Shown piece by piece: positions 21,249 to 40,700 of a stretch of 64,000 nt of DNA. Location: positions 149,621 through 213,620 of the forward strand of contig JAHBXS010000002.1 in NCBI GenBank assembly GCA_019636375.1, read 5' to 3'. Position numbers and translations under genes: made by a program. The stretch is from Pirellulaceae bacterium (GTDB lineage Bacteria > Planctomycetota > Planctomycetia > Pirellulales > Pirellulaceae). Under the pieces are notes generated by a model. The model saw nothing but the letters and a program-made list of their open reading frames with translations, searched no databases and had not been told where the DNA came from. Numbering within the stretch: the first letter of the stretch is position 1; each line of letters opens with the position of its first letter.

Positions 21249-21839
21249 TCAATCCGCTTCCCACTCCGGCGGTGGGAACGTGACATTGGTGTAAACTTCG
21301 CCCAGACTTAACTCGCAATCAACTTCGGGCAATGGAATGACGGCATCGAGACCCTCATAGAATTCTCGCTCAAAACCGTATTCACCACGGCGGTGCAGAA
21401 CCGTCGCAGGAATGTCTTGTTCCAGCAACAGATAGCAACTCAACGAGTTGATGGTCAAATAGGCTTCGCGTTTTTCGAATTCATCCACTCGCCGGGTGGA
21501 CTCAGACAGCACTTCCACGATCACTACGGGTTGATCTTGGAACAGATCGCCGTCAGGGTTTGGTTGGCAAACGACCAACAAGTCAGGATAGTTGAACCTC
21601 ACGCTATGGCTCAGCCGGACCCGAATTTTCATATCCGAATTGAACGCTTCGCAGGATTTTCCGCGAAGCTGTGCTCCAATCGAGAGCGTTACGCTCATCG
21701 TGATTCGATTGTGGCGAGCCGAGGCCACCGCCAAGGCATACACCGTCCCATCGACGAACTCATGTTTGCGGTCCGAGATCAGTTCCCCTTGTAGATATTC
21801 CTGAACCGAAATCGGCAGTCTTTTAGGTGCGATCCTCAT
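21249..21839 (-). CDS. Uma2-family (DUF820) putative restriction-endonuclease-like protein, 196 aa.
   Basis: ...EFVDGTVYALAVASARHNRITMSV...DMKIRV...PDLLVV... matches the PD-(D/E)xK-like Uma2 pattern. Confidence 0.7.
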   Translation of the reverse strand: MRIAPKRLPISVQEYLQGELISDRKHEFVDGTVYALAVASARHNRITMSVTLSIGAQLRGKSCEAFNSDMKIRVRLSHSVRFNYPDLLVVCQPNPDGDLFQDQPVVIVEVLSESTRRVDEFEKREAYLTINSLSCYLLLEQDIPATVLHRRGEYGFEREFYEGLDAVIPLPEVDCELSLGEVYTNVTFPPPEWEAD

Positions 21840-22136
21840 TCAAGTAATTTACCACAACCGACGAAAATCGTGCAGCAGGAACCCGAATTTTAGCACTTCG
21901 GGAGAGGGTGAGTCATCAGGATTTGATATCGACATCACGACTAACGAGATGCAGCAGGCGAAATGTGTGAGAACCGAATGGATCGCTGATTGCCACTCCA
22001 AATTGCAAGTTTTTCTCCAAACACGGAAAAGGGATTGAATTGAAAAATCATCCGTTGCCGCTACACCACACCATGTCTCGGCTATAATCAGGTTAGTCGT
22101 TTGGTGCGGCCTTAAACGGTTTCAGGACTTTAGCTT

Positions 22137-22964
22137 TTGGTTTTCTTCGAAAGGAAATTTTTCTCGATGTTGGTTTTAGTGCGATTGGTTGTGGTGGTTG
22201 GATTGGTGGCTTCGATGCCGCTCGCGGTCAGTGCTCAAGACAGTTGGGGACATTTGTCGGGACGATTTGTCGTCAAGGGCGAACTTCCCCCGGCTGCTCA
22301 AAAGAAAATCGACAACGATGCGGCTTACTGCACGCGAAGCGGAAAACCGATTCTAGATGAAACCGTTGTCGTCGATGAAAATGGCGGTCTGCGGGATGTG
22401 TTCGTCATGCTGCTGCTTGAACGAGACGCGGCCCCACCAACGATTCACCCTTCCTACGAAGAAAAAAAGAACGAACCGGTGGTCTTAGACAACGTTGAAT
22501 GTCGTTTCGAGCCTTACGCCGTCTTCGTGCGGGCCGGGCAAAAATTGTCCCTTAAAAATAGCGATGAGATCGGGCACAACTGCCACATTATCACCTTCGG
22601 AAATGAAGAGAACGTCAACTTAGTCGCCGGAGGAACAGTCGAAGTCGCTCTGCAAAAGGCCGACCGCGTTCCCGGCAACGTCGTGTGCGATATCCACAAA
22701 TGGATGGAGGGAGTGATCTTAGTCCGCGACGAACCCTACGCGGCGATCACGGCGGCAGATGGAACGTTTCGGATCGATAACCTACCGGCCGGAACTTTGA
22801 AGTTCCAGTTCTGGCACAAGAAAGTCGGCTTTTTGCGTGAGATCACCGTTGGCAATCAAGTCACCGGTCGGCGGGGCGAGGCCGAGTTGACGATCGTCGA
22901 CGGCGAAACACTCGATTTGGGCACGATCGAAATCGACGCTAAAGCGTTGACTGGCGACAAGTAA
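22137..22964 (+). CDS. Secreted protein with a C-terminal carboxypeptidase-regulatory-like beta-sandwich domain (275 aa).
   Basis: Signal peptide (LVLVRLVVVVGLVASMPLAVSAQD) and the motif AADGTFRIDNLPAGTLKFQFW. Confidence 0.6.
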   Translation: MVFFERKFFSMLVLVRLVVVVGLVASMPLAVSAQDSWGHLSGRFVVKGELPPAAQKKIDNDAAYCTRSGKPILDETVVVDENGGLRDVFVMLLLERDAAPPTIHPSYEEKKNEPVVLDNVECRFEPYAVFVRAGQKLSLKNSDEIGHNCHIITFGNEENVNLVAGGTVEVALQKADRVPGNVVCDIHKWMEGVILVRDEPYAAITAADGTFRIDNLPAGTLKFQFWHKKVGFLREITVGNQVTGRRGEAELTIVDGETLDLGTIEIDAKALTGDK

Positions 22965-23102
22965 ACTCGATTTTTATCCACTTTAAAAATCGTTCGCGAC
23001 AATTTGTCGTCTCGCTGTGGGCAATGAAGTCGCGACAATGATGGTTAGTCACGGATCGGTAGTTTGAGTAACGAAAAACTACTTCCTCGTGATTGAAATT
23101 CA

Positions 23103-24494
23103 GTGTTTGTAGAGAGCTTAAAATGCGGGTTCAACGTAGCGGAAGTCGTCAAGACTTTCGGCATTTTTGTGATTGACTCGAAACTCTTGACGAGTTCCGC
23201 TACAGGAAAATTAAGCCACGACAAAGCACTAGCCATGCAGTCAACCAAAACGATGACGTTCAAAAAAAAATTAATAAGAAAATTTTGTGCCGGCTTGGGA
23301 ATGCTTTCCCTGTTGATCGCCGCAGGCTGTCGGCCGAGTACGGGTTTAGAATTTCCAGCAAACGAAGTTGAACTTCTCAAACTGCAACGGCATAAGTATG
23401 GCCCCAACGAGGAATTGGATTCCAAATACAAGGATCAGGTCGCCGGAGTCATGGCCGCTTTGTTCGGCACGCCAGACGAGCCAGCATTTCCCTTCCCGGC
23501 CAACGATGCGTCTCCGTTTCGTGCGTTGGTTTCGTTGGGCAACTTGAATGCATCCGCCGGACCTGTTGCGAGTGTTAAAGACGGCAAGGAAAATCTGGGG
23601 CTTTATCGCAAACACTGTGCGAATTGTCATGGCCTAGCTGGAGACGGTGCCGGTCCGGTAGCCTTGACCCTCAATCCCTACCCCCGCGATTTTCGCCTGG
23701 GAAAATTCAAATTCAAATCGACGCCACTGCGTGTCCCTCCCACCGACGAAGATTTGGTACGAGTTATCAGACACGGGATTCCGGGGACCGGTATGCCAGC
23801 CTTTCCGAACATGCCTCCAGACGAAATGGAAGCGATCGTCGACTATGTGAAGTATCTTGCGATTCGCGGAGAGGTCGAACGACGCCTGTGGGATGAAGTC
23901 ACTAGTTTGGCGGGAGAGCCCTTGGCCGGAATTCCAGGTTCGCTTGATACTGCCCAAACTCGCGAGGCGTTTCGCAAAGTTCTCGTGAGTGACCCGACGA
24001 GTCCGATCAGCGACATTTTATTCGACGATGTTTTGCCCCGTTGGGTCGAAAGGGACGCTCGCGTCTCGGCGGTTCCAACCGCTCCGGCGGGTGTCGAACC
24101 GAATGATGCGGAGTTCAATAGTCTGGCTGGCGTCGGTAAGGAGTTATTTCTTGGCAAGGCGAACTGTATTCAGTGCCACGAATTGCCTGGACACTCGGCG
24201 ACCCAAGCAGTGAACTATGACGATTGGACCAATGACTGGGTAAAGACACCGGGGATCGATGTTGAAGACAAGCGGACGTTTCGCGAGTTTTTAAAAGCGG
24301 GTGCTTTGCCCCCACGCTTGTTGCGTCCACGAAACTTGACCCTTCCGGTATATCGCGGCGGCGATGAGTCCCGCGACTTATATTTGCGGATCAAAAACGG
24401 AATCGAGGGAACACCGATGCCTTCATCAGTTTCGTTGAATGACGAAGAAATCTGGGCCCTGGTAGCGTTCGTGCGGTCCATGCCCCTTAAATAG
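23103..24494 (+). CDS. Diheme c-type cytochrome lipoprotein. The likely start is at 23235 (MQSTKTMTFKKK...LIAAGC).
   Basis: Two CxxCH heme-binding motifs (CANCHG and CIQCHE). Lipoprotein signal. Confidence 0.85.
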   Translation: MFVESLKCGFNVAEVVKTFGIFVIDSKLLTSSATGKLSHDKALAMQSTKTMTFKKKLIRKFCAGLGMLSLLIAAGCRPSTGLEFPANEVELLKLQRHKYGPNEELDSKYKDQVAGVMAALFGTPDEPAFPFPANDASPFRALVSLGNLNASAGPVASVKDGKENLGLYRKHCANCHGLAGDGAGPVALTLNPYPRDFRLGKFKFKSTPLRVPPTDEDLVRVIRHGIPGTGMPAFPNMPPDEMEAIVDYVKYLAIRGEVERRLWDEVTSLAGEPLAGIPGSLDTAQTREAFRKVLVSDPTSPISDILFDDVLPRWVERDARVSAVPTAPAGVEPNDAEFNSLAGVGKELFLGKANCIQCHELPGHSATQAVNYDDWTNDWVKTPGIDVEDKRTFREFLKAGALPPRLLRPRNLTLPVYRGGDESRDLYLRIKNGIEGTPMPSSVSLNDEEIWALVAFVRSMPLK

Positions 24495-24503
24495 ACAATC
24501 AAG

Positions 24504-25487
24504 ATGAACCAACCCAACTCGTTATCGTTCTGCCGTTGGCCCAACCGCATCGCGCGTTGGTTGGCGGTGGTCTCATACGTCTTGATTTTCGCTGGGGGAC
24601 TGGTAACGACGACAGCGGCAGGAATGGCGGTCCCCGATTGGCCAAACACCTACGGCTACAACATGTTTTTGTATCCGTTCTATGATTGGTTTTTTGGTCC
24701 GTGGGACTTGTTCGTCGAGCATGGCCATCGGCTGTTGGGAACGTTGGCCGGGATTTTTGCGATCTTGTTGGTGATCGTGACGTTTCGAAAATTTCCGGGG
24801 ACGCGAATGCCCGCGTTTGCGATTGTGCTGTTGGCCTTGGTGATTTTCCAAGGGACCCTCGGAGGCGTGCGAGTCCTCCGCGACGATCGCACGATTGCGA
24901 ATCTGCATGGAGTCGTCGGCCCGGCATTTTTTGCTCTGGTTGTGGCGTTTTGCGTGATCAGTTCCCGCTGGTATCGCCGGAACGTGGTCGAAGGATCAGG
25001 GGCTGGGGCAGAGCAAGTCGGGACGGGGAATTTGACTTGGGCTCAAACCCTGCTCGGCCTGAGTTTTGTGCAGTTGGTGCTCGGTTCGCTTTTGCGGCAC
25101 ATTGATGTGATGACCTCGCCGCGAGGCTTCCCGCATTTGGTTTACACGCATATTGCTGTGGCGGTATTGTTGATGCTGGCGACTTGGTGGTATTGGTGGC
25201 GTACACGCCGTATGTCGGGGACTGGATTAAGGTGGCCGGTAAATCTTTTGTCAATTGTGATCTTCGTGCAAGTCGCGCTCGGTTTGATCACGTGGGTGAT
25301 GAAGTATGGTTTCCCTTGGTGGTTGGACCATTATTTGGTTGCGGCAAGTTTCGTGATTCCCGACAAAACGATGCAGCAGACATTGCTGGTCACGGCTCAC
25401 ATGGCGATGGGATCTGCCATTTTATGTTTCTGGACCGTACACGTTGTGCGAATGCGGGGTTTGCTCAAGGGCCCGGCGCTTCAATGA
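24504..25487 (+). CDS. ctaA: Heme A synthase (COX15/CtaA family).
   Basis: Multi-TM protein with conserved His in TM helices (EHGHRLLGT, HMAMG). Lies directly after a cytochrome c gene. Confidence 0.8.
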   Translation: MNQPNSLSFCRWPNRIARWLAVVSYVLIFAGGLVTTTAAGMAVPDWPNTYGYNMFLYPFYDWFFGPWDLFVEHGHRLLGTLAGIFAILLVIVTFRKFPGTRMPAFAIVLLALVIFQGTLGGVRVLRDDRTIANLHGVVGPAFFALVVAFCVISSRWYRRNVVEGSGAGAEQVGTGNLTWAQTLLGLSFVQLVLGSLLRHIDVMTSPRGFPHLVYTHIAVAVLLMLATWWYWWRTRRMSGTGLRWPVNLLSIVIFVQVALGLITWVMKYGFPWWLDHYLVAASFVIPDKTMQQTLLVTAHMAMGSAILCFWTVHVVRMRGLLKGPALQ

Positions 25488-25564: not shown

Positions 25565-28500
25565 TCAATCGTTGTCTTGGGGGTCGTCGATTTCTAGGAC
25601 TTCGCTGGGGTCGTCGGAGATGCGCTCGGCGAGTTGGTCGACGATTTGAGCGTAGGTCTCGCGAGTGATCTTGGCGCTGCGAGCAAGTTCATTCGCAGCA
25701 GGCCAAATGTCGGCGAGCTTTTGCAACGGTTCGATCCATCGCTCCAAAACATCGAACTGGTGTTTGACGACATCCAAAAACGCTCGCGGGACACGGTTGA
25801 CAATATGGATCGGTTGGCGGCGTCCAGAGGCGGCTTCGTCTTGTGCCGTGCGAGCACTCTGGGCTGACGACTCGGCGATTCCTCGAAGTTGCTCCAAAGT
25901 CTCGTTGAGTTTCGCAAGCTCCGAAACCGATTGACCGACTTGTGCGAGCAACAATTGTTGCAACGGTTGCGTTTCGTTTTCTGGAGTGGCCAGTGCCCTT
26001 GTCCCTTGTTGCACCGCCCGTTCGATGGCGCCCAGACCTTCGGAAAACAGAGCCATTTGCCCGATGATCTGACCTGTTGCATCGTCACGATCCACCGAGC
26101 CGAGGACTTGATTGCGCTGAAAGGTCCGCTTGATGTCGTTCCAGCGCTGGAGATCGTCGCCATGTAGGGTTCCGGTCAGCTCGCGGAACTTGAGCAAGTT
26201 CGCTTCGGCTCCGGTCGTCAATGTTTGGGCTTGGTTTTCATAATGCGAGCGAACGAGGACTTCGATCTCTTCGTCGTTCATCAAGGCGACGATCCGCTCG
26301 GCAAGTTTGTTCATGTCGCGGTAGGAACCTTGCAACTGAAATCGCGGCTCGGTGCGGAAGGCGTCGGCTTGAGCGGCTGAATCGATGTACTGGCGATTGA
26401 TCCGTAGGAGTTGATCGCGGATTTGCAACAAACGACGCATGACGGTGACAAACTCGTTGATTTCGTCGATCGCATAGTTACCTTGAAGCGATACTTCCTG
26501 GCCGCCGGTCCCCTGGGCCATGCTGAGAATCGCATAGACATCATCCCAGCCATGAGTCACCAGGCGGCTGAGCGATGGGCTGGATGTGATGGCGTTTTCG
26601 ATATAGCTCAACTCGAAAAGGTGCTGATTGCCGCCGATCACATCCCCCAGATTGTAGGTGTCGGCGCGGTTGGCCAACATGTCGGGAATCTGGAATTTCT
26701 CGCCACTTTCCGTGTACGGGTTCCCGGCCATGACGACGCAAACCTTGCGTCCCCGCAAGTCGTAAGTTTTCGGTCGCCCTTGATAGACCCCTTCGATACG
26801 CCGCGTGGCGTCGCAAAGGGAAATGAATTTTTGCAAAAACTCCGGGTTCGTATGCTGGATGTCGTCGACGTAGATCATCACGTTGTCACCCATTTCCAGG
26901 GCGAGGTTCAACCGTAAAACCTCTTCGCGAGCACTCGCATTGGGGGCTTCGTCGGGGTCGAGGGACGTGACATGATGCCCAAGCGCGGGGCCGTTGATTT
27001 TGACGAAGGTCAAACCGAGCCGATTGGCGACGTATTCCATCAGGGTCGTCTTTCCGTAACCCGGCGGCGAAATGACTAACAGCAAACCGTTACGGTCGGT
27101 CCGCTTTTGTTCTCCAGCGGCGCCTAACTGTTTGGCCAAGTTGTTACCGATAAGCGGCAAGTAAACATCGTTGATCAGTTTGTTGCGAACGAAGGAGGTC
27201 AGCACCCGAGGCTTGAACTCTTGAAGGCGAAGTTCCTCACGACGCGCGGCAAGGGCTTGGCTCTTGACCTCTTGAAAATGTTCAAAGGCCGGAACTTCTT
27301 CAATGGTGAACCGGTCCAGACGAGCGGTAAACTCATAAAAATCGACAACGAAAGGCTTCGCTTGCAATCGAGTGTGATCACCGAGCAAACCGGTCAACTC
27401 CCGCTGCGGTTGTGCCGATACGGTCTGACGCGGCGTGGTGTCGGAATCGAGCAACACGGCGACGGCCTCCCACAATTCGCCACGTTTGGCCTCAATGGAT
27501 TGAGCCGACACGAGGGCAGAGAGCCAGTCCATGGCGTCTTCCATTTGGTTCAAAAACGGGAGCTTGCGAAAAGCGTCACTGATCAGGCTACCTGAGTCTT
27601 TTGCCTCCGTGCGCTGTTGAAACTTCTTCACGATGGTGGCTGCGGTTTGACTGAGCGGTCGTTGCTGGTCGGCCAGTTGCACATACAGGAATTCGGCAGC
27701 AGCTTGTGCATGACCGATTGCGATCGGGCATTCGCCGAGAAACGCCTCGACTTGCCGCCGCAGGGCTGCAACGAGGGTGCTTCGACCAATTTCTTGATTC
27801 AGTAAACTTCGCGCGGTCCGTTGCGACTCGATTCGCGTGACAAGTCGCTCCCGTTCGGCGGCTCGGTTTGGGGATGTCCGCAACCACGACCAAGTCAAAT
27901 TAGCCAGCGCACGGCAACCCGGTTCGTACCGCAACCAACCGAGCGATTGATGCAGCGAGAGTAACGTCTTCAGGATCAACGCGGCGTCGTGATCATGGAC
28001 CCCCTTGAGGTATCCGTCAGCATAGCGCGGCGCCATGAACCGCTGGACTTCGGCGAGCAATTCCGCATCATCGAGTTGAGCCAGTTGGTCGATGGTCAGT
28101 TGATTTGCCGCTGTGGGGGCTTCTCCCTTTTCGCTCCCCTGCCCTGCTTGGAATATCAGCCAAGCCAAATACTCGCCCCGATAGACTTGGCGATTTTCCG
28201 AAACGACCGCTTGATCCCACAGCCGCTGAAGTCCATCAAGTTCGGCGGAGTTGATCGGCTCGATGAAATTGGTGCCGGAAAGATGAAAGCAAAGACGATT
28301 ATCCTGAGCGACAATCGCCAGATCGAGGGGTTGAACGTTGACCGTAAATTTGTGTTGACCGAACTGGATCAGGTTTTGCCCATCGACAAACAGCTCTTGA
28401 CGGTCCCGCAGTTGACGCGCGGCGTCTTCGCGAATCGTCTTCAGGCGACTTTGCAACTCATCGACCTTGACGGTTTCGTCCAACTCCAACAACTGCCGCA

Positions 28501-30943
28501 CGATATCGCGGACTTTGTCGACCATCAGGTCGGCGGCAAAGTAGCTGTTGATGGCGTCGAGGGTGTCGAAGCCGCTGACGCGAGTTTGAATGCTGTTGAG
28601 AATCCGGTCGGCGGCGGTGGCCAGCGACATAGCGCGGCGATTGCGAGCCTCGACGAGTTGCAGTTTTCTAGCATCGAAAGCTGAGTAGATTTCGTCTCGC
28701 TTTTCCGCCAACTGAATCACGAAGTCGTCGAATTCGGCAAATCGGCCTTCGATTTCTTCGACTTGGACCATCATCTTGGTCAGGTATTCGTCGCAGCGTT
28801 GCGGCGTGTCGCACACGTCGAGGTAACTGGTGACGGCCTGGCTGAGCAGTTTTAACTGGGCTGCGAACTCCGCCGCACCTTCGACACTTGACAACTCACG
28901 CAACTGCAGCCGCAGGGTCGCGCGGGTTTGATTCAACGAGGCGTAGATGGTCGAGATCGAATCGGTAATCGCCGTACGCTGCGTGGCGTCGTCGATTTTG
29001 AGATTGCTGACGATATCGATCAGCAACTCCAGTTTTCCACTGAGTTCGACGAGCCTCCCATCAAGTTCTCGTCCTGTCACTGCGGTCTGGATTTTTTCAA
29101 TTGCCGCATGTTCTTGTTCGATTTGATCGGCATAAGTCTTAAGTGCCGCCGGTTCGGCCAAGAAATCGACACAACGACGAGCGATTTTTTCGGAGCCTTC
29201 GATGACCCTGGCTTCCCATTCATCGACGGCGGGAAGGTCAACGTATTTAAGGTCCTTGAGAGAGATCAGTTGCCCACGAACGTTTCGTAACTGAGCCAGC
29301 GAATCGACGTATTCTTCCACCGTTTGGTAGCGGCGACGCTCGGCGTGCAGAAGCGTTTCGCGGGCCGTGCGGGTGACGCTGTCAAATTGTTTCTGCGTCG
29401 AGGCGCGGATACTTTGGACTTTGTCGAATTCCGAAATGGCGGCGTTCGCGGTTTGTTTGATCTGTTCGCAGATTTCGGCGATGTTGTAGGCGACAGGTTC
29501 CTTGAGCCAAAAGAAACCGTCCAGGATTTGCTGGGACTTGTTCGTCAAATCGATGTACAGGTCGCCGTAGGTGTCCTCTTTGTCGAGCAGGCCGAGGATT
29601 TCGCTCCCTTCGGCGATGGCCCGCACGATGTCGCGGTTGCCGATTTTGAAGAGTTCAGAATCGGTGCGAGCGTCGAGTCGAAAATTCTGGCCGGTGAAGG
29701 GGGTTTGCCAAATCTGAATCGCATGGTGTTTGCGGGCCGATTCCTCAGAACGGAACACGAGGAGATGCCCGTTGTCGAACAGCGAATAACCTTGGCAACG
29801 TACCGGGGCTTCCATCCGCTGCTCGATCACATTGTACGACGCCAGCAGGTAATCGCCCGACCCCGACTGGTGAAAAACGAACAGGTGATCTTCGCCGTTG
29901 GATGACGTGATTCGCTTTTCGAAATGAAAATCACTCGCGTCGGAATCAAACGTGCGGTAAGTGCCGAACTGCGTGTAGAACCCGGTGGGAAAAATGATAC
30001 CGTGGTCTTCGGGGAGGAGAACACAGGCTTGCTCAATGGAGTCTTGCCGCAGGATATGGTGGTTCTTGCGGTTGTAGATGAAATAGCGGAACTTCGGCTC
30101 GCGAAAGGGGCGGATCTTGAGCAGCACCAAGTTGCCGACAATCGCATAGAAGATTTCTGCATCGTCCAGCGTTTGATCGAGATCGTCGACCGGTTCGGCG
30201 TAAATCCCCTGCCCTTCGTCGGTGTTGTCTTCGATCTTGATCGTCAAGTCGCCACCGATCGTCTCTACAAACAAGATGTCTTCCACCGAGATGTGGGGGT
30301 GTTTGCCTTGCCGATGCAAGTCGCGATGGGTTCGCTTCCAAGTAAACTCGTGTTGCGGCGGTGAGCGGACCTCGTGTTCGCTGCGGTTATCGATGTACTG
30401 CAACCGCCCGTCGGTGATCACCCATTTGAAGACCTTGATGTCTCCGGCCGATTTCCCAACCTGAAAGATCATGTACAGGTTGGGATAAGCCAAATGGAAT
30501 TTGATGAACTGGGTGGCCGAGTAGTATTTGTAAAGTTGCTGGAACTCCAAAAGAAACCTGGAATCATCGAGCAAACTCAAATCCGCTTCGTGAAACGTCT
30601 CGTCGGCGAAACGAAAGACGCTGAAGACATCGGCGACGTTGGTTTCTGTTTTTAGGCCGAGATGGACATTGAAGCCGAAAAGAAAATGTTCTCCGACCGG
30701 GACCAGATCGCGAGCGACGCAATTGTGCTCGGTGGAGACTTGCTCGGTTGCCAGCAGCCTTGTCGGGATCGCTCCGAAGACATCGCGGCGGGCCTGGTTG
30801 AGCTGGTCCAGCCGACGACGCAGTTCCCCACCGGCCTGCTGCAATCGGTTGCGAATGATTTCGTAAGTCGATTGCTCAAGGCCAATGGCCGGTTCGGGGG
30901 GGGCTGCGGGAGCCGTCGTTTTGTTGCGTCCGGATTTCGCCAT
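25565..30943 (-). CDS. Giant 1792-aa protein with a C-terminal MoxR/AAA_5-type AAA+ ATPase module. The N-terminal 1250 aa have unknown function.
   Basis: Walker A LLLVISPPGYGKTTLMEYV, Walker B MIYVDDIQ, and sensor-1-like VVMAGNPY typical of the AAA_5/MoxR subfamily. Lies 27 nt downstream of the flotillin gene. Confidence 0.8.
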   Translation of the reverse strand: MAKSGRNKTTAPAAPPEPAIGLEQSTYEIIRNRLQQAGGELRRRLDQLNQARRDVFGAIPTRLLATEQVSTEHNCVARDLVPVGEHFLFGFNVHLGLKTETNVADVFSVFRFADETFHEADLSLLDDSRFLLEFQQLYKYYSATQFIKFHLAYPNLYMIFQVGKSAGDIKVFKWVITDGRLQYIDNRSEHEVRSPPQHEFTWKRTHRDLHRQGKHPHISVEDILFVETIGGDLTIKIEDNTDEGQGIYAEPVDDLDQTLDDAEIFYAIVGNLVLLKIRPFREPKFRYFIYNRKNHHILRQDSIEQACVLLPEDHGIIFPTGFYTQFGTYRTFDSDASDFHFEKRITSSNGEDHLFVFHQSGSGDYLLASYNVIEQRMEAPVRCQGYSLFDNGHLLVFRSEESARKHHAIQIWQTPFTGQNFRLDARTDSELFKIGNRDIVRAIAEGSEILGLLDKEDTYGDLYIDLTNKSQQILDGFFWLKEPVAYNIAEICEQIKQTANAAISEFDKVQSIRASTQKQFDSVTRTARETLLHAERRRYQTVEEYVDSLAQLRNVRGQLISLKDLKYVDLPAVDEWEARVIEGSEKIARRCVDFLAEPAALKTYADQIEQEHAAIEKIQTAVTGRELDGRLVELSGKLELLIDIVSNLKIDDATQRTAITDSISTIYASLNQTRATLRLQLRELSSVEGAAEFAAQLKLLSQAVTSYLDVCDTPQRCDEYLTKMMVQVEEIEGRFAEFDDFVIQLAEKRDEIYSAFDARKLQLVEARNRRAMSLATAADRILNSIQTRVSGFDTLDAINSYFAADLMVDKVRDIVRQLLELDETVKVDELQSRLKTIREDAARQLRDRQELFVDGQNLIQFGQHKFTVNVQPLDLAIVAQDNRLCFHLSGTNFIEPINSAELDGLQRLWDQAVVSENRQVYRGEYLAWLIFQAGQGSEKGEAPTAANQLTIDQLAQLDDAELLAEVQRFMAPRYADGYLKGVHDHDAALILKTLLSLHQSLGWLRYEPGCRALANLTWSWLRTSPNRAAERERLVTRIESQRTARSLLNQEIGRSTLVAALRRQVEAFLGECPIAIGHAQAAAEFLYVQLADQQRPLSQTAATIVKKFQQRTEAKDSGSLISDAFRKLPFLNQMEDAMDWLSALVSAQSIEAKRGELWEAVAVLLDSDTTPRQTVSAQPQRELTGLLGDHTRLQAKPFVVDFYEFTARLDRFTIEEVPAFEHFQEVKSQALAARREELRLQEFKPRVLTSFVRNKLINDVYLPLIGNNLAKQLGAAGEQKRTDRNGLLLVISPPGYGKTTLMEYVANRLGLTFVKINGPALGHHVTSLDPDEAPNASAREEVLRLNLALEMGDNVMIYVDDIQHTNPEFLQKFISLCDATRRIEGVYQGRPKTYDLRGRKVCVVMAGNPYTESGEKFQIPDMLANRADTYNLGDVIGGNQHLFELSYIENAITSSPSLSRLVTHGWDDVYAILSMAQGTGGQEVSLQGNYAIDEINEFVTVMRRLLQIRDQLLRINRQYIDSAAQADAFRTEPRFQLQGSYRDMNKLAERIVALMNDEEIEVLVRSHYENQAQTLTTGAEANLLKFRELTGTLHGDDLQRWNDIKRTFQRNQVLGSVDRDDATGQIIGQMALFSEGLGAIERAVQQGTRALATPENETQPLQQLLLAQVGQSVSELAKLNETLEQLRGIAESSAQSARTAQDEAASGRRQPIHIVNRVPRAFLDVVKHQFDVLERWIEPLQKLADIWPAANELARSAKITRETYAQIVDQLAERISDDPSEVLEIDDPQDND

Positions 30944-30970
30944 CGGAGGGGGTACCTAGCGTCAAGCGAA

Positions 30971-33031
30971 TTATGGTTTTGCGTGTGGTTTGGCACCTGT
31001 CAATCGCAGACTGGACGCCTTTTGATCGGCCAGCCCCAATTGACGAACGCCATCGAGCAGTCGCTGGAGTTGGCTGCGTCCCGATTCATCGGCTCCTTGC
31101 ATGAGTTGCAGGATCAGGGTTGCGATGGAAAGGTTTTTCAAGTCCGCTGAGGAAATCCCCACCATATCGACGTACTCTTGGAGTCGGCCTTTGATTTGCG
31201 AGAAGTCGCCGGTGAACAACGAGTCTTTGACATCGCTGAGGACCTGGCTCCCCTCGACCAGGCGATCAACCTGTTTACCGGCAGTAATCGAGCGAACCAG
31301 ACTGTCGAAGAACTGGTTGTCGCCGCCGACGATATCGATTTTGGCGGTGCGAAGCGCCTCGCCCAACATGCGGGCTTGGGCCTCGGCAATCGCCTTTTGG
31401 ATATTGATCGCTTCGAGTTCGACTTCTTTGTCTTTGTTGAGTCGCAATTTGAATTCTTCATGCTCGCGACCAACGCCGTCGAAGAGTTTCATCGCTTCGG
31501 CCTTGTCGGTGATCCCCTTGGCCTCGGCGGCAAACTTAAGTTCGGCAACGTGAGCCTCGGCTTGGCCTTCTTTCTCGATAGCCTGAGCCAGGGCTTGTTT
31601 TCCGGTCGCTTCGGCTTCGAGTTTTCGTTGGAGGACTTCCGCTTCGGCCAGTCCTGTGGCAGCGGATTCCACGCGAACGGCATCGGCCAACATTTTCTTG
31701 GCCTCCATCTCTCGTTCGGCGGCAGTCTTTTGCGCCTCGGCCCGGATGATGATCGTCTCGGCCTGGAAATTGGCGGCTTGTTTTTCAGCCTCGGCAGCTT
31801 TGATTTCTTGCACGAGGGCCTGTTGAGCTCGTTCTTCGGCCTCGGTGATTGCGACCCGTTTTTTACGGTCGGCGGTCGCGTACTCTTGCGTGTCTTTGAT
31901 CCGTTCTTCTTCCTCCACCACCGCTCGTTCGACGATGACTCGTTCGCGGATCACGTCTTGGATGTGCTTCTTCTCGACTTCGACCGCCTTGTCTTTTTCG
32001 ATTTGGGCGAGGGTCACGATACGTTCGCGTTCGGTGACTTCCAAGTCGCGGTCCTTGGTAACACGTTCTGTCTCAACGGCATCGGTACGTTCTTTGTTCT
32101 TTGCCGCGACGATGATGGTGCGCAGGCGATTTTCGTCGGCCACTGAGATTTCTTCGTCGGCAGCGATGCGAGCAAGTTCGGCTCGTTGACGCTCTTGGTT
32201 CTCGACGACTTGAGCCTCAGCCCGTTGACGCGCTTTGATTTCGGCGATTTCGCGGGCTTGTTTTTCTTCCGCCTCGGCCTGTTGGCGTTGCAGGGCCAGG
32301 ATCGCCTCGCGAGCTTCGACGTCTTGTTTCTCAACAGTCTTTTCCCGCTCGCGGCGGATGAAGTTCGTGCGAATTTGCTCCTGGGCGGTCAGGTCGGTAA
32401 TTTTCTTGATCCCTTCCGCGTCGAGGACGTTGTCGGCGATCAGGAACTCGAGCGGCGTTTGCTCCAAGCCATCAATAGCCACGTCATCCAGGACGTAACC
32501 GTTGAGGTCAGTGCCGATGATCTTAATGATCTCTTCGCGGAACTTTTCGCGGGCGGTATAAAGTTCAACAAAGTCGAACTTTTTGCCAACCGTTTTCAAA
32601 GCTTCAGAAAACTTTGGCTCGAAGAGAGCGATCAAGGCTTTTTCCTCCGAAGCCCGACGGCAACCGAGGAATTGAGCAACCTTTTGCACGTCTTCCGGGG
32701 TCTTGTTCACGCGGACAAAGAAGGCGACTTTGATGTCGGCCCGAATGTTGTCTTGGCAAATCAAGCCATCCGACCCGCGGCGGTCGATCTCGATCCGCTT
32801 GACCGAAATGTCCATCAACTCCGTGCGATGAATCAGCGGAATATCGAACAACCAAGTGAATTTTACTACGGTGCCGCCGACACCGTTGCGGACGAGGGCG
32901 GTCCCCTGTTCGACCTTTTTCATGCAGCGGACGGCCAGGGCGGCAAGCCCCACCAGGATGATGACAACAAAAATGGCGGTCATCACCAGTGTGTTTTGTA
33001 GATTACCTTCGGCGAGAATTGACTCGTACAT
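30971..33031 (-). CDS. Flotillin-like SPFH/band-7 domain protein with a long Ala/Glu-rich coiled coil (686 aa).
   Basis: N-terminal TM helix. SPFH core (ALVRNGVGGTVVKFTWLFDIPLIHRTELMDISVKRIEI...). Extended EA-rich heptad region typical of flotillins. Confidence 0.85.
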   Translation of the reverse strand: MYESILAEGNLQNTLVMTAIFVVIILVGLAALAVRCMKKVEQGTALVRNGVGGTVVKFTWLFDIPLIHRTELMDISVKRIEIDRRGSDGLICQDNIRADIKVAFFVRVNKTPEDVQKVAQFLGCRRASEEKALIALFEPKFSEALKTVGKKFDFVELYTAREKFREEIIKIIGTDLNGYVLDDVAIDGLEQTPLEFLIADNVLDAEGIKKITDLTAQEQIRTNFIRREREKTVEKQDVEAREAILALQRQQAEAEEKQAREIAEIKARQRAEAQVVENQERQRAELARIAADEEISVADENRLRTIIVAAKNKERTDAVETERVTKDRDLEVTERERIVTLAQIEKDKAVEVEKKHIQDVIRERVIVERAVVEEEERIKDTQEYATADRKKRVAITEAEERAQQALVQEIKAAEAEKQAANFQAETIIIRAEAQKTAAEREMEAKKMLADAVRVESAATGLAEAEVLQRKLEAEATGKQALAQAIEKEGQAEAHVAELKFAAEAKGITDKAEAMKLFDGVGREHEEFKLRLNKDKEVELEAINIQKAIAEAQARMLGEALRTAKIDIVGGDNQFFDSLVRSITAGKQVDRLVEGSQVLSDVKDSLFTGDFSQIKGRLQEYVDMVGISSADLKNLSIATLILQLMQGADESGRSQLQRLLDGVRQLGLADQKASSLRLTGAKPHAKP

Positions 33032-33037
33032 GGCTAG

Positions 33038-33652
33038 TTATCCTACAGGTTTAGGAATGCGTACAACAAACAAATCTTTCACGGGTTCATATTCGGTGAT
33101 CTCAACAACTTCCCCTTTAATGGGGCGGTGCCCGTAGCTCCGTGCATTGAACACGAGCGGCGGGCCGTCTTGCTGGATCGAAATTTGACCAAATTCATCG
33201 GTGATTTCACTGGTCTGCACCACCGCCAACCGTCCGACAAAATGTGCTTTGTCGTGAGACTGCGCCGGTGATAGTTTTTTGAAAATCGTCACGGTGGGAA
33301 ACAAGATCAACTTGGTCACCAACAGGCTTGCGATCAGGTTCGGAATCAAAAAGTAAACCACCACCCAACCGCTCAGATTCGGGTTGAAGTAGTGATTGCT
33401 CATGATCGTTGTGGCCCAAAAAAAGAGCACAAACAACGACACGACCAACATGATTGGAACGTCACCCAAGTGGAGAAATTTAAATCCTGCCACCCAACCG
33501 TCGCCAGCATCAGACCCATCAAGATCGATATCGAACAAGTCACCTCCCAGCACCCCGATGATCGCCAACAGCCAATAGGCCAAGACGACCAACAGCAACA
33601 TGGTCGGCACCAGATTGACTGGTTGAAACATTTCGAAAATCAAATTGATCAT
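33038..33652 (-). CDS. NfeD-like membrane protein (short form, YuaF/YqiJ-like), C-terminal OB-fold (204 aa).
   Basis: Three to four TM helices then a beta-barrel-like C-terminus (GRLAVVQTSEITDEFGQISIQQDGPPLVFNARSYGHRPIKGEVVEITEYEP). A 6-nt gap to the flotillin gene, the classic NfeD-flotillin pairing. Confidence 0.7.
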   Translation of the reverse strand: MINLIFEMFQPVNLVPTMLLLVVLAYWLLAIIGVLGGDLFDIDLDGSDAGDGWVAGFKFLHLGDVPIMLVVSLFVLFFWATTIMSNHYFNPNLSGWVVVYFLIPNLIASLLVTKLILFPTVTIFKKLSPAQSHDKAHFVGRLAVVQTSEITDEFGQISIQQDGPPLVFNARSYGHRPIKGEVVEITEYEPVKDLFVVRIPKPVG

Positions 33653-33795
33653 CTCGTTTCCAACTCCCGCTGCTTCAGATTAGGACGAAATTCAAGACAT
33701 GGGCCATAATTTGCAACCTATTCGGTGAATGTCGCAAAATATTGCGGTCTTATGAGAAACAATTGTAACGATTTCGCCGCTAAAATGCCTTGTAT

Positions 33796-33952
33796 CCGTT
33801 CACGGAGTGAACGGCCACGTAGCTTTTCACTCCGTGAAAAGGCGGAAACACCGAAGGAGCATACCAAAACAAACTCGCGGACATTAGATTCGTCAACGCG
33901 GGAACTGGTTGTGTTCGAATGTCGATTCCGTGAACGGTTGCAATGCCTTTTT
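33796..33952 (+). promoter_or_regulatory. Structured leader of thiD. Overlapping, mutually exclusive hairpins are built from copies of CCGTGAACGG/TTCACGGAG, followed by a T-tract. Candidate attenuator or uncharacterised riboswitch-like element.
   Basis: ccgttcac[gga]gtgaacgg at 33796-33814; cggagtgaa...ttcactccg at 33804-33834; ttcac[tcc]gtgaa at 33826-33838; tccgtgaacgg at 33927-33937; cctttttt at 33945-33952. Confidence 0.4.
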
Positions 33953-33972
33953 TCGATTTCCGGAGTTCGTAA

Positions 33973-34809
33973 ATGTCTTTGCCGATACACCGCGACACCC
34001 CCATTCCCAACGTTTTGACGATTGCCGGCTCAGACCCATCGGGTGGAGCAGGAATTCAAGCGGACTTAAAAACCTTCGCCGCCTATCGAGTTTATGGGGG
34101 TGCCGTGTTGACAGCCCTTACTGCTCAGAATACTTGCACCGTTTCGGCTGTCCACCTGCCGCCCCCAGATTTTGTTCGACAACAACTCGAAACCCTGTTC
34201 AGCGACGTGGCGATTTCGGCGATCAAGGTCGGCATGGTCGCGACTTCTGACATCGCAGCCGTCGTCGCCGAGAGTCTAAAACGATGGCGCGCCGAGCATC
34301 CGTTGGGCGTGATCGTCGTCGATCCGGTGATGGTTTCCAAAGGAGGCGACTCACTGGTCGATGAGCAAGCGGTAGCCACCATTCGCGAGCAGTTGATTCC
34401 TCTCGCAGACTTGATCACCCCGAACTTGCATGAAGCCGGAGTGTTGCTGAGTAGAAAGCTCGATGGCAATCAAGGAGAACTCCGTCAAGTCGCCGAGCAA
34501 CTTTTGGGACTTGGTAGCAAAGCGGTCTTGGTCAAGGGTGGCGGCGGTCACGGCCCCGAGTCCATCGACATATTCAGTGATGGCGACCACACGGAATCTC
34601 TCATCTCAGAACGAATTCCAACACGTCACACGCACGGCACTGGTTGCACCCTTTCCGCCGCCATCACTGCCGGAGCCGCATTGGGCAACCCACTCCTTGA
34701 GTCGTCTCGCCAAGCCAAGCACTACCTCACCGCCGCGATCCACTCCGCCCCCACCCACCTCCGCGTCGGCCACGGCAACTTACCACTCGATCATCAGGTT
34801 AAACCGTAA
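33973..34809 (+). CDS. thiD: Hydroxymethylpyrimidine/phosphomethylpyrimidine kinase
   Basis: LTIAGSDPSGGAGIQADLKTF...VKGGGGH...HGTGCTLSAAI are canonical ThiD/PdxK ribokinase-fold motifs. Confidence 0.9.
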   Translation: MSLPIHRDTPIPNVLTIAGSDPSGGAGIQADLKTFAAYRVYGGAVLTALTAQNTCTVSAVHLPPPDFVRQQLETLFSDVAISAIKVGMVATSDIAAVVAESLKRWRAEHPLGVIVVDPVMVSKGGDSLVDEQAVATIREQLIPLADLITPNLHEAGVLLSRKLDGNQGELRQVAEQLLGLGSKAVLVKGGGGHGPESIDIFSDGDHTESLISERIPTRHTHGTGCTLSAAITAGAALGNPLLESSRQAKHYLTAAIHSAPTHLRVGHGNLPLDHQVKP

Positions 34810-37414: not shown

Positions 37415-37497
37415 TAGCGGTGAGAGGAGTCGAACCTCCACGTCCATTGGACACTTGATTTTGAATCAAGCGCGTCTGCCATTCCGCCACACCGCCG
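37415..37497 (-). tRNA. tRNA-Leu (anticodon CAA), type II with a long variable arm.
   Basis: Reverse complement GGCGGTGTGGCGGAATGGCAGACGCGCTTGATTCAAAATCAAGTGTCCAATGGACGTGGAGGTTCGACTCCTCTCACCGCTA. D-arm, anticodon loop TTCAAAA, long variable stem-loop, T-arm GGAGG-TTCGACT-CCTCT. Closely resembles E. coli tRNA-Leu. Confidence 0.82.
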
Positions 37498-37778: not shown

Positions 37779-40700
37779 CTAACCGGCTTTTAATGTTGGG
37801 CCGACGGGGAGGCGGAGGACGGTGCGGGCGGAAAGGAGGGCCGAAACGAGTCCACAGATGACGACGCCGCCAAGGATCAATGCAAGATGCAGCCAAGGCA
37901 ATGAAGCTTGACCGACCAACCAATGCGGGACCGTTGCGGCTAGGGCGGCAAGTACCCCGACGACCAATCCAACTAACAACAGGAACAACTGCTCACCAAA
38001 CAACAGCGCCAACAAACGTCGCGGGCCAAAACCGACGGCTCGCATCAACGCCAACTCCTTGCGTCGCTCGACGATGTTCCGCAACTGAACGGCCCCGAGC
38101 CCCAACGTGCCCAACAACAATCCCAAGCCGCCCAGCGATTGAAAGGCACTCAAGTAAGTATTCTGCACGGCAGCAAAACCGCTGAGGACGTCCCGACTGC
38201 GACGAGCGTCCAACCCGTAATCACCGAGCCGTTCTTCCAAACGTTCTATCAGGGCTTCATGCTCGGCGGTCACTTCTCCAGTAATCAACAGCGTTTGATA
38301 ACCGCTAATATTCGGGAACGCACGGAGAAAATGATTTTCGCCAATCAACAGGCTCCCTTGAAATAAACTGTTCTCCAAAAAACCGACGATCAAAAACGTG
38401 ACTTGTTCCCCCGAATCGTAGTCAACGGTGTAGGTCCCTCCGGTGCCGTAAATTTTTAGACTGTACATGGCCGTGTTCTTGTCGAGAATCGCGGGGATCG
38501 GCGAAGTCATCGTTCCTGTCGCCGCCGGGTTTCGATCGAGCATCCGCCAAGGATTATCGGCTTCGGTGTCTGATTGGCTTTGCACTCCCGACCAAAGGAA
38601 TTTTTTTGGGGCTGGTGGATCAAACCTTTCGATCCAAGCGCCCGAGACTCCCAACACGCGGGGCTGCGTCGCTTGGTAAAGGTTGTTGCAACTGGCGTCT
38701 TGGCCAGGCTTGAGCCGCCAAGCATAAACGTCGAGAGTCGGAGGAAAAAACGGAGCGTCTCCCAACAAGTCCGCCCGTCCGTTTGCCGAGCCAAGATCGG
38801 AGACGATCGGCACACTGCTTTCGGCGATCCAGTTCGCGCCACCCGTTGATTGCGAAGTTGGTTGCAGACGAAACGAACTGATCGCGATGATTAGAAACGT
38901 TGCGACACTGACCAAGCCGATCATCAACGTGCTGCGTAAAGGATTTCGCCGCAGATTCTCCCAAGACAGACTTCCTACTGAGCGAATCGCAAGATGCCCC
39001 TGTTTTCGATTGCGGGCTTTGAGTTGGCGAAAAACAACGAGCCACAAGGCGGCGAGGAACATAAATCCGCCACCCATAAACGCTCCGGCTTGGCTTTCTC
39101 CTCCCAAACCTGTCGCGACAACCACCAACACGACGGCCCCCAGCAGCAACCCGACAACTGTCAGCGAGAGCCATCCGATACGTGAACCGCCAGCGGCTAC
39201 TTGTTCGTTTCCGCTGTGAATTCCTCGCAATAGCTCTCGCGCGGGCAAACGGACCATCCCGCGAATTCCCCAGGCGACGGTCAACAGGCTAATGGCCATC
39301 CCGATCAAGAACCCCACCGCGAGAACCGTTGGCTCGACATGCAGCCTCAAAAACGGCGTCGCAATCGCTCCTACCCACCAAGTCTTCAGGGCCTCAATCA
39401 TTAACGCTCCGTAGGCCACGCCTCCCGCCAGCCCAACCGCTCCACCGAGCAAGCAAACCAGAAAAATCTCTTTTAGCCAAACCCTGCTGATCAGACCTTG
39501 CGGCCAACCGAGTGCCGACAACAACCCGACTTGATCGACGCGTTGCTCGAGCCCGAGTCGGAATAACAGGCTGACCAAAATCAACGCCGAGGCGATGATG
39601 AACATACTCAAGCCTAAGAACAGAGCATCGAACGGAGCCGTTCCGGCGGATGCCGCCAACCCCTCACGCTTCACGCGAACGATGTCTAGCCCAAACCGCC
39701 CCGGCGATTCGCGCCATAAACTTACAAGTTCTCGTTCGACATCCGCTTCGGGGACTGAACTTGGAAGGCGAAAATTGGTGATCGCTCCAAAGCGGCTGTT
39801 CCACAAACTCAGCCCGGTGTTCAACGACACGAAACCTTTGGGGGTTGTGCGATGCAGATTCCAATACTCGTCGTCTTGGCTGCGAATTCGATAGGTCAAG
39901 GCAAACGGCACGTCCCAACTTTCCATCGTCACGGCATCGGTGAGACCAGGGACTTCGGGAGTCAGCCAAGGGTCGTTGACGAGCGTCGGAGGATCGACGA
40001 ATTCGGCTGTGAGGACTTCGTTGCCGCGAATCGCGAACGGGCGATCAGGTTCGGTGAGTGCGGCGATGGCCGCGACTCGCAACGTCACTGAGTCTTCGCG
40101 TTGGACACCGTGTGCCGATTCGGGCTCAAAAAACAGCAATTCGATTTCATCTCCGACTTGGACCCCCAAATCTTCTGCCGCCCATTGGCTCAAGACGACT
40201 TGATCATCCGCCAGTGCGGTAATGCGGTCAGCGGGCTGAATTCCCATCGGTTGAAATTCGTCGTCGAAATCAATGGCAGTGAACATCGAATAAGGAATCG
40301 CCATTGCGGCGTCGGGTTCACCGGACTTGCGTATCAAATTGATCAAATAGGTCGATGCAGGTTTTAATGACGGCAAGCCCTCTTGCAGAGCGGCGACTTG
40401 AGGGTCGGAAAAAACGAGTCGGCTGGTGGTAAGGCTCAAGTATTCATGAATCACCCGCCGCTGGTCGCCAGTTCCCTGCGCCAATTCAATTCGTTTTAGC
40501 TTAAGGGCAAGGTCTTCGGGTCGGGGTGTTAGTTCAGCAAACAAATCGTTGGCAGCTTTTTCGGAGGGAGGATTGGTCCCCGCTGGCCCAGAAAGAAAGG
40601 TTGCATTGATGAGACGTGGGTTTTCACGAAAAACCGAATTATCGCGTCGGAGGAATTCTTGCAACGTCTCCAGCGATAGGAACAAATTGAGCGGAAGTTG

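Follow-up and report, generated by a model that had tools for sequence, protein, structure and literature searches.

What is a giant ATPase gene doing next to a flotillin gene in a planctomycete, and do the two belong together? The question arises in a 64,000-nt stretch of a Pirellulaceae genome (hereafter the window), where the original prediction placed NfeD-like, flotillin and 1792-aa AAA+ genes in one operon. All three open reading frames are found there, tightly packed on the minus strand. They encode a 204-aa YqiJ/YuaF-like protein (33652-33038), a 686-aa YqiK-type flotillin (33031-30971) and a 1792-aa AAA+ ATPase (30943-25565). The first two genes are separated by 6 nt, and the predicted spacer of 27 nt between the flotillin and ATPase genes is confirmed. 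These are real genes and not chance open reading frames, because the ATPase has more than 4643 homologues (E ≤ 1e-10) and exact copies of all three proteins are present in NCBI (MBX3417303.1-305.1, from a Pirellulaceae MAG). The evidence supports treating the YqiJ-like, flotillin and ATPase genes as one unit.

The unit is bounded on one side by a divergent thiD-like gene (33973-34809, plus strand) and on the other by a convergent CtaA-like gene (24504-25487, plus strand). The 320 nt that separate the operon from the thiD-like gene (33653-33972) are presumed from their position to be the promoter region; a scan for promoter and terminator consensus sequences gave nothing above the chance or shuffled expectation, and Rfam and tRNA scans had no match inside the operon. 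The window also has a gene for a Uma2-family nuclease, at a distance of 3.7 kb.

Strong conservation of the arrangement extends over at least seven phyla. We examined the 80 best-scoring of at least 588 loci, a sample that leaves the most divergent family members outside. For 63 related loci the upstream DNA was long enough to be informative, and in 61 of these an orthologous flotillin is encoded upstream on the same strand. Of these 61 flotillin-bearing loci, 55 also carry the YqiJ-like gene. The informative loci belong to the Planctomycetota, Bacteroidota, Verrucomicrobiota, Desulfobacterota, Clostridia, Lentisphaerota and Fibrobacterota. At two loci (L016 and L052) the 7.6-9.9 kb upstream of the ATPase gene contain no flotillin. 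The flanking genes are of housekeeping type and vary from locus to locus. Overall, the flotillin-linked ATPase occurs in at least 588 species genomes. Loss of the three-gene arrangement in relatives had been named in advance as a possible refutation, and the arrangement proved to be kept.

The first gene encodes a YqiJ/YuaF-like inner-membrane protein. Three transmembrane (TM) segments are predicted (residues 13-31, 65-83, and 98-116), followed by a soluble beta-rich C-terminal tail. The protein shares 25% identity with E. coli YqiJ (BLASTP, E 4e-5) and has a weak match to Pfam YqiJ_N (E 0.16), and a profile of the orthologues from 53 related loci, PspA-linked Bacteroidota operons included, matches it with an E-value of 3e-52. 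The NfeD C-terminal domain (PF01957) gave no match in this protein even at E ≤ 10. The protein is of the YqiJ/DUF1449 type, and the predicted label of NfeD-like holds in a loose sense, for a three-TM YqiJ-like protein, and not as membership of the PF01957 family.

By its sequence, the middle gene encodes a true SPFH/flotillin of the YqiK type, as had been called. NCBI labels the protein (MBX3417304.1) a flotillin family protein. A TM segment at its N-terminus (residues 16-34) is followed by the SPFH domain, then by a long coiled coil rich in Glu and Ala, and last by the C-terminal region. The SPFH/Band_7 domain (residues 39-221; 32369-32917, minus strand) matches Pfam PF01145 with an E-value of 3e-12, and the flotillin N-terminus scanned by itself scores 47.4 bits against a cut-off of 23.6. 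The similarity to E. coli YqiK amounts to 30% identity over residues 14-456, through the coiled coil (E 4e-41); the C-terminal region aligns partially and poorly, and the window protein is 133 residues longer. The operon-linked flotillins are a subfamily of their own, in which full-length column identity across phyla is about 70%.

The giant ATPase is soluble, with no TM segment predicted. The original prediction held that the AAA module is its sole recognisable part, which is not the case. Pfam DUF3686 matches residues 40-478 (E 1.3e-180) and DUF7902 matches residues 600-682 (window positions 28898-29146, E 1.7e-23). In the modelled structure, the order from the N-terminus is a beta-propeller, a helical rod of spectrin-like type, a further helical domain and a single AAA+ module. 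The predicted propeller (residues ~62-413; 29705-30760, minus strand) lies within DUF3686 and is preceded by a long helix (residues 22-56). The AlphaFold2 model of this region has a pLDDT of 83.5 and about 27 strands, and Foldseek relates it to the beta-propellers of Elp1, CyRPA, WDR91, the clathrin terminal domain and DDB1, with probabilities up to 1.0. The helical rod (residues ~430-850; 28394-29656, minus strand) contains DUF7902 and is composed of long three-helix-bundle, spectrin-repeat-like units. As modelled, a propeller joined to a spectrin-like rod is an interaction and spacer architecture.

Other searches of the protein returned little. PDB sequence searches with three queries (the protein itself, a profile of its full length and a profile of the AAA module) gave no match to the N-terminal 1250 residues; the matches obtained, to classical AAA and RuvB proteins, cover only about 40 residues near Walker A and strand 2. 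Domain searches of the ATPase detected no MIT-like or other known ESCRT-III/SPFH-binding domain, and no protease, nuclease, toxin, DNA-binding or helicase-specific domain. Residues 1-1200 of the ATPase served as the query of the representative search. The C-terminal helical tail (residues ~1650-1792; 25568-25996, minus strand) is lineage-specific; it is found in only about one quarter of the family representatives (alignment occupancy 0.24-0.29), and the homologues from Bacteroidota and Verrucomicrobiota align only up to residue ~1645-1660.

The AAA+ module (residues ~1251-1600; 26144-27193, minus strand) is the most conserved part of the ATPase, and its motifs are invariant throughout the family. 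Two of the three predicted motifs, DDIQ (within DDIQH) and MAGNPY, read as given; Walker A is SPPGYGKTT and not GPPGYGKTT. The conserved residues are G1295, K1298 and T1299 of Walker A, D1360-D1361 of Walker B (DDIQH) and N1408 of sensor-1, and R1426 is a candidate arginine finger. Walker B carries DD instead of DE, and the rate of hydrolysis is therefore uncertain. A beta-hairpin between helix 3 and strand 4 precedes sensor-1. By structure comparison, the fold is closest to remodellers and disaggregases, namely NorQ, CbbQ, CLPB/Skd3 and ClpB-D2. For the MoxR/AAA_5 label assigned earlier, the evidence is mixed: MoxR-family proteins (NorQ and CbbQ) are among the best structural matches, alongside CLPB/Skd3 and ClpB-D2, whereas the sequence models stay below threshold. 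AAA_5 matches with an E-value of 0.0012 and 19.3 bits, under its cut-off of 22, and AAA_22 and AAA score above it. NCBIfam has no MoxR match for the protein and returns only sub-threshold P-loop matches to RuvB, CDC48 and RFC. A VWA-domain partner gene, for which a MoxR/AAA_5 assignment would call, is neither conserved beside the 80 loci nor present in the window flanks.

The combination of these genes had been considered not to be a described system, but it has been published. In a comparative genomics study of the phage-shock response, Ravi et al. (2024, mSystems, PMC11237479) described a PspA-linked architecture together with an 'abbreviated' three-gene form, proposed ATP-dependent sub-membrane dynamics for such operons and suggested that the abbreviated ones act with PspA encoded elsewhere. 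An architecture string in the supplement of that study is the same as that of the window ATPase. The PspA-linked operon (for example, Dokdonia donghaensis ANH61663.1) has the same three core architectures in the same order. In our sample, the core is preceded by PspA (PF04012, E 2e-44) in 18 of 24 Bacteroidota loci and by a CesT/Tir-like chaperone (CesT_Tir_1, E 8e-54) in 16 of 24, and the extended operon is accompanied by a divergent HTH repressor. The window ATPase is 42-50% identical to the ATPases of the CesT-PspA-YqiJ-flotillin loci over residues ~20-1645; the planctomycete protein continues beyond them with a C-terminal tail of about 140 residues.

In contrast to the PspA-linked operon, the window and all Planctomycetota loci examined lack PspA, the CesT/Tir-like chaperone and the HTH repressor. 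Profiles of the Bacteroidota PspA and CesT-like genes have no match in the 64-kb window, both genes are absent from the operon in 12 of 12 informative Planctomycetota loci, and none of the non-Bacteroidota loci examined has PspA in its operon. With its TM-anchored flotillin, a three-TM YqiJ/YuaF-type protein just upstream and a propeller-rod AAA+ ATPase, the window operon does not have the full PspA-linked form; it is well supported as the abbreviated form of a widespread operon of YqiJ/YuaF, YqiK-type flotillin and DUF3686 ATPase. Our literature searches found no paper testing the function of this operon, and such an ATPase is mentioned neither in a study of SPFH evolution (PMC2636767) nor in one of P. 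aeruginosa SPFH proteins (PMC13086221).

Several known systems share parts of this arrangement. E. coli yqiJ-yqiK and B. subtilis yuaF-floT are homologous pairs of a membrane protein gene followed by a flotillin gene (a flotillin with a short NfeD-like partner). In E. coli, yqiK is followed by sibD/ibsD and not, as in the window, by an ATPase gene. In S. aureus, FloA-NfeD holds unfolded proteins (PMC11222466). The pairing of an SPFH scaffold with an AAA+ machine at the membrane is known from the literature for HflK/C with FtsH and for prohibitin with the m-AAA protease, and offers an analogy. Unlike FtsH and m-AAA, the window ATPase is soluble, has no protease domain or TM segment and comes from another AAA+ lineage; its large N-terminal region of beta-propeller and spectrin-like rod also sets it apart from both systems. 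Nor is it of the Vps4 type, defined by an N-terminal MIT domain and a classical meiotic-clade AAA module. Unlike Vps4 and CdvC, it has no MIT domain and is about four times larger, and its best structural matches are of the MoxR and ClpB-D2 types and not of the meiotic clade. In addition, the ESCRT-III setting of Vps4/CdvC differs from that of the present operon, in which PspA is not encoded outside the Bacteroidota.

We tentatively propose, as a possibility and not as the established function, that the ATPase uses ATP to remodel the flotillin/YqiJ scaffold as part of maintaining the membrane under stress. The flotillin, anchored by its single N-terminal TM helix, would join the three-TM YqiJ-like protein, and the two would build an SPFH-type scaffold at the inner membrane, on its cytoplasmic side. 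The soluble ATPase would dock onto this scaffold via its beta-propeller and spectrin-like rod and, probably as a ring oligomer, would spend ATP on taking the flotillin assembly apart, opening it or recycling it. Associated PspA polymers, where present, may likewise be substrates. The outcome would be control of microdomain turnover and of client release under envelope stress, a role analogous to that of Vps4 on ESCRT-III. A membrane-remodelling or stress role had been among the original suggestions, and the addition of PspA and CesT/Tir genes to the Bacteroidota operons is in keeping with it. A more specific version would make the DUF3686 ATPase the hitherto missing disassembly machine for bacterial flotillin cages and, in some lineages, for PspA/ESCRT-III-like polymers, that is, a bacterial functional counterpart of Vps4 whose propeller and spectrin-like arm grip the scaffold; in this full form we regard the proposal as rather unlikely.

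Other substrates have to be weighed against the scaffold. The flotillin/YqiJ scaffold might itself not be remodelled and instead recruit or corral damaged membrane proteins, which the AAA+ protein would thread or extract, like HflK/C with FtsH minus the protease domain. Nothing observed points to clients over the scaffold as the substrate, the loop of the ATPase is without an aromatic-hydrophobic-Gly pore motif and the protein has no protease or other downstream processing domain, and such an unfoldase or extractase seems to us rather unlikely. PspA, encoded in the operon or elsewhere, could also be the true substrate of a dedicated ESCRT-III-like disassembly motor, with the flotillin and YqiJ-like proteins merely localising it. 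The frequency of PspA and the CesT/Tir-like chaperone in the Bacteroidota operons points in this direction, as do the suggestion of PspA acting from elsewhere (PMC11237479) and a gap in the field, since a 2025 review (PMC7619361) describes a Vps4-like ATPase as apparently absent in bacteria and the roles of PspA's Band-7 partners as undetermined. However, the near-universal partner is flotillin and not PspA, which is found neither in the window nor in the non-Bacteroidota operons examined, and with no MIT domain detected we consider a dedicated PspA motor improbable.

The two remaining readings have still less in their favour. The pairing of a large NTPase with membrane proteins is a common theme in defence, and the operon could be an anti-phage or abortive-infection module in which the ATPase senses infection and the membrane proteins are effectors. 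A weak PADLOC match to mad8 (P-loop region only, E 0.0012, 16.4 bits) and the Uma2-family nuclease gene mentioned above can be counted for this idea. Yet PADLOC-DB 2.0 has no significant match for any of the three proteins, and none at all for the flotillin and YqiJ-like proteins. The flanks are housekeeping genes that differ among genomes, no conserved defence neighbours occur among the 80 loci, no nuclease, protease or toxin domain was found, and the conservation of the flotillin across phyla is unusually high for defence genes. A defence role, also raised in the original prediction, is accordingly very improbable. Finally, NCBI labels the ATPase (MBX3417303.1) a 'DNA repair ATPase', in line with the Pfam description of DUF3686, which would make the flotillin linkage incidental. 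Besides the database name, this reading has weak RuvB_N/RuvB matches confined to the P-loop; they extend over about 45 residues on either side of and including Walker A, and their scores of 19-22 bits (21.6 bits for a model with a cut-off of 282) are far under the RuvB cut-offs of 282-299. The protein has no detected DNA-binding, nuclease or helicase-specific domain, its conserved partners are membrane proteins, and literature searches for DUF3686, PF12458, and 'flotillin' with 'DNA repair ATPase' found no paper. A function in DNA repair is scarcely credible, and 'DNA repair ATPase' is probably a misnomer.

The linkage of flotillin and ATPase is already published, and the window brings no new discovery in this respect. 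What is added here is a planctomycete example, quantified synteny (61 of 63 loci), evidence against the 'DNA repair ATPase' name and a domain map of the ATPase, comprising the propeller, the spectrin-like rod, the helical domain, the AAA+ module with its pre-sensor-1 hairpin and DD Walker B, and the lineage-specific tail. Bacterial flotillins have been widely studied, although the way in which their assemblies form, open and are recycled is not clear. The flotillins of this operon are a specific subfamily of high conservation, and the operon links them to an AAA+ protein of their own, which is a testable candidate for the missing energy-consuming step. If the Vps4-like reading is true, such a disassembly machine would be present in hundreds of species from at least seven phyla.

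Three consecutive genes lie on the minus strand of the window, exactly where the original prediction had placed them: a YqiJ-like gene (33652..33038, 204 aa), a flotillin gene (33031..30971, 686 aa) and the gene of a giant ATPase (30943..25565, 1792 aa). The stop-to-start spacers are 6 nt (YqiJ-like/flotillin) and 27 nt (flotillin/ATPase), and the unit is flanked by a divergent thiD-like kinase gene on one side and by a convergent CtaA-like gene and cytochrome c genes on the other. Given the short spacers and these bracketing genes, the three genes form a self-contained operon by position. NCBI holds identical proteins from a Pirellulaceae MAG for all three genes, named 'hypothetical protein' (MBX3417305.1, the YqiJ-like protein), 'flotillin family protein' (MBX3417304.1) and 'DNA repair ATPase' (MBX3417303.1). 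Nothing stands behind the last name except P-loop similarity to RuvB. Elsewhere in the window, a gene for a 196-aa Uma2-family putative restriction endonuclease (21249-21839, minus strand; PF05685, E 2e-20) is found 3.7 kb past the operon 3' end, amid the cytochrome c and CtaA genes. A 1218-aa protein with FtsX-like permease domains at its C-terminus and no Pfam match over most of its length (37779-41435, minus strand) is encoded beside a tRNA-Leu(CAA) (37415-37496, minus strand).

The full-length flotillin has no Pfam match, probably due to its long Glu/Ala-rich coiled coil. Scanned alone, its N-terminal 237 residues match SPFH/Band_7 (47.4 bits, threshold 23.6), and E. coli YqiK aligns across residues 14-456 with 30% identity (E 4e-41). 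A single transmembrane helix is predicted, at the N-terminus. The YqiJ-like protein has three predicted transmembrane helices and matches Pfam YqiJ_N weakly (E 0.16); E. coli YqiJ aligns with it at 25% identity (E 4e-5). It had been labelled NfeD-like, but as Pfam finds no NfeD domain (PF01957) in it, it is of the YqiJ/YuaF type and not a canonical NfeD.

No transmembrane segments are predicted in the ATPase. Pfam detects DUF3686 (residues 40-478, E 1.3e-180), DUF7902 (residues 600-682, E 1.7e-23) and, above threshold at residues ~1284-1384, AAA_22 and AAA. AAA_5 scores under threshold. Two tested features of the MoxR/AAA_5 assignment made earlier, the sequence threshold and a VWA partner, are lacking. 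Two AlphaFold2 models, each built on a 42-sequence alignment and covering residues 1-900 (pLDDT 83.5) and 881-1792 (pLDDT 76.7), predict that a long helix (residues 22-56) precedes a beta domain with ~27 strands (62-413). Long helices then form a rod (430-850). After a short beta linker come a helical domain (~920-1170) and a single AAA+ core, in which a pre-sensor-1 beta-hairpin lies between the third helix and the fourth strand, and the protein ends in a helical lid and tail. The AAA+ module is the best-conserved region; Walker A G1295/K1298/T1299, Walker B D1360-D1361 (DDIQH), sensor-1 N1408 and R1426 are invariant in 28 family members (30-48% identity). The last ~140 residues are found in only about a quarter of family representatives. 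The motifs of the original prediction are present, with Walker A reading SPPGYGKTT rather than GPPGYGKTT. The Walker B motif, YVDDIQH (window 26861-26875, residues 1357-1361), has two invariant Asp where Asp-Glu is usual, and its DDIQ string resembles the DnaA Walker B motif. Judging from its motifs, the ATPase is likely active despite DD in place of DE.

Over 4643 proteins are homologous to the ATPase at E<=1e-10, and residues 1-1200 used as query recover 1349 clusters at 50% identity, mostly 1600-1900 aa long. When one genome per species was scanned, at least 588 species were found to encode a relative. Synteny was analyzed in the best 80 of these at least 588 loci by score, so that distant family members are under-sampled; the 80 derive from Planctomycetota, Bacteroidota, Verrucomicrobiota, Desulfobacterota, Clostridia, Lentisphaerota and Chitinispirillaceae. 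ORFs were called in the 80 loci and searched with the window's proteins, and the count of upstream genes rests on the 63 loci whose upstream sequence spans at least 3.5 kb. Upstream on the same strand, 61 of the 63 encode a closely related orthologue of the flotillin (E 1e-90 to 1e-260), and in 55 of these 61 a YqiJ-like gene precedes it. The operon-linked flotillins share ~70% column identity over their full length, and a separate look-up of a 54%-identical ATPase homologue on a 7.8-Mb planctomycete contig revealed the same three genes in wholly different flanks. That the arrangement might not be conserved in relatives, the outcome that would have counted against the original prediction, is clearly contradicted by this synteny, the different flanks and the conserved flotillins. 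No further gene family is kept around the core across phyla in the best 80 loci.

The two exceptions, L016 (1-9886) and L052 (1-7659), one of them in a MAG of Desulfobacteraceae and the other in one of Bacteroidia, have no flotillin or YqiJ-like gene within 7.6-9.9 kb upstream of the ATPase, and may be ATPase-only variants or have partners encoded elsewhere in the genome. No YqiJ-like gene was detected upstream of flotillin in loci L035, L056, L060, L063, L070 and L076, mostly from Verrucomicrobiota/Lentisphaerota; the flotillins of L035, L056, L060 and L070 are more divergent (E 1e-99 to 1e-133, versus ~1e-200 elsewhere). The flotillin-ATPase gap is 9-120 nt in Planctomycetota and Clostridia. 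At this junction, many Bacteroidota and some Verrucomicrobiota loci carry 0.5-2.4 kb of variable small ORFs (for example, L007 8490-9958, L041 7620-9979, L044 8310-9976 and L026 6834-8239) that are not conserved from locus to locus, and it looks like an insertion hot spot. Locus L001, which lies on the 7.8-Mb planctomycete contig mentioned above, encodes in addition a long NfeD of 766 aa with NfeD1b_N, NfeD_membrane and NfeD domains (21629-23929), ~6 kb downstream of the ATPase and distinct from the operon's YqiJ-like gene.

In Bacteroidota, three extra genes are found ahead of the core: a divergent HTH_3 gene, a CesT-like gene (131 aa; CesT_Tir_1 PF22550, E 8e-54) and a PspA/IM30 gene (239 aa; E 2e-44). 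Of 24 informative Bacteroidota loci, by phylum labels assigned by hand, 18 carry PspA and 16 carry the CesT-like gene. The divergent gene is conserved on the opposite strand ~1.5 kb upstream of PspA and encodes ~255 aa with an N-terminal HTH_3 (loci L006, L018, L021, L025, L031, L040, L041, L044, L046, L048, L049, L054, L061, L062, L074 and L079). Ravi et al. (PMC11237479) label it cHTH+protease, a LexA-like make-up, which suggests that the Bacteroidota operon is controlled by a self-cleaving repressor, the protease part being putative here. Exactly this extended PspA/CesT context was published by Ravi et al. in 2024, with a Dokdonia donghaensis neighbourhood of identical gene order in the supplement, and it was incorrect to consider the system undescribed; our literature search found no other papers on the giant ATPase.

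No PspA or CesT-like gene is present in the 64-kb window, which lacks the tested features of the full PspA-linked form. Every defining feature tested for Ravi et al.'s abbreviated class is present in the operon, which belongs to that form. The tested features of canonical NfeD and of PADLOC defence systems are absent from the locus, as are those of RuvB-type repair ATPases and of Vps4 from the ATPase. Since the features of the abbreviated class are present and those of the other tested classes are not, the locus is a Planctomycetota example of an operon kind known so far from computational description.

With the gene linkage, domain identities, membrane topology and conserved ATPase motifs observed here, we propose that the flotillin and YqiJ-like protein would form an SPFH-type scaffold at the inner face of the membrane, to which the soluble ATPase would be brought via its predicted beta-propeller and spectrin-like rod. 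There it may spend ATP to disassemble, open or recycle the scaffold and, in Bacteroidota, may also act on associated PspA polymers. The overall role would be part of envelope-stress maintenance, and the membrane-stress reading in the original prediction is reasonable. The system would work like HflK/C-FtsH, in which an SPFH scaffold is paired with an AAA+ machine; however, the window ATPase has neither a protease domain nor a transmembrane segment, which places the system outside that family.

The chief alternative is that the ATPase works on client proteins held by flotillin, a reading that fits the ClpB/Skd3-like structural neighbours of the AAA+ module and the reported stabilisation of unfolded proteins by FloA-NfeD in S. 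aureus (PMC11222466). As a third possibility, it could have a PspA-specific, Vps4-like role. The scaffold is favoured as the primary target because the near-universal partner is flotillin (61/63 loci) and not PspA (18/63). A defence module, also raised in the original prediction, is unlikely: the operon proteins have no significant PADLOC match, the flanks are variable housekeeping genes, effector domains are absent and sequence conservation is very high. According to a 2025 review (PMC7619361), the roles of PspA's Band-7 partners are still undetermined and bacteria appear to lack a Vps4-like ATPase. At stake in this widespread system is whether bacteria possess an ATP-driven remodeller of flotillin or PspA.
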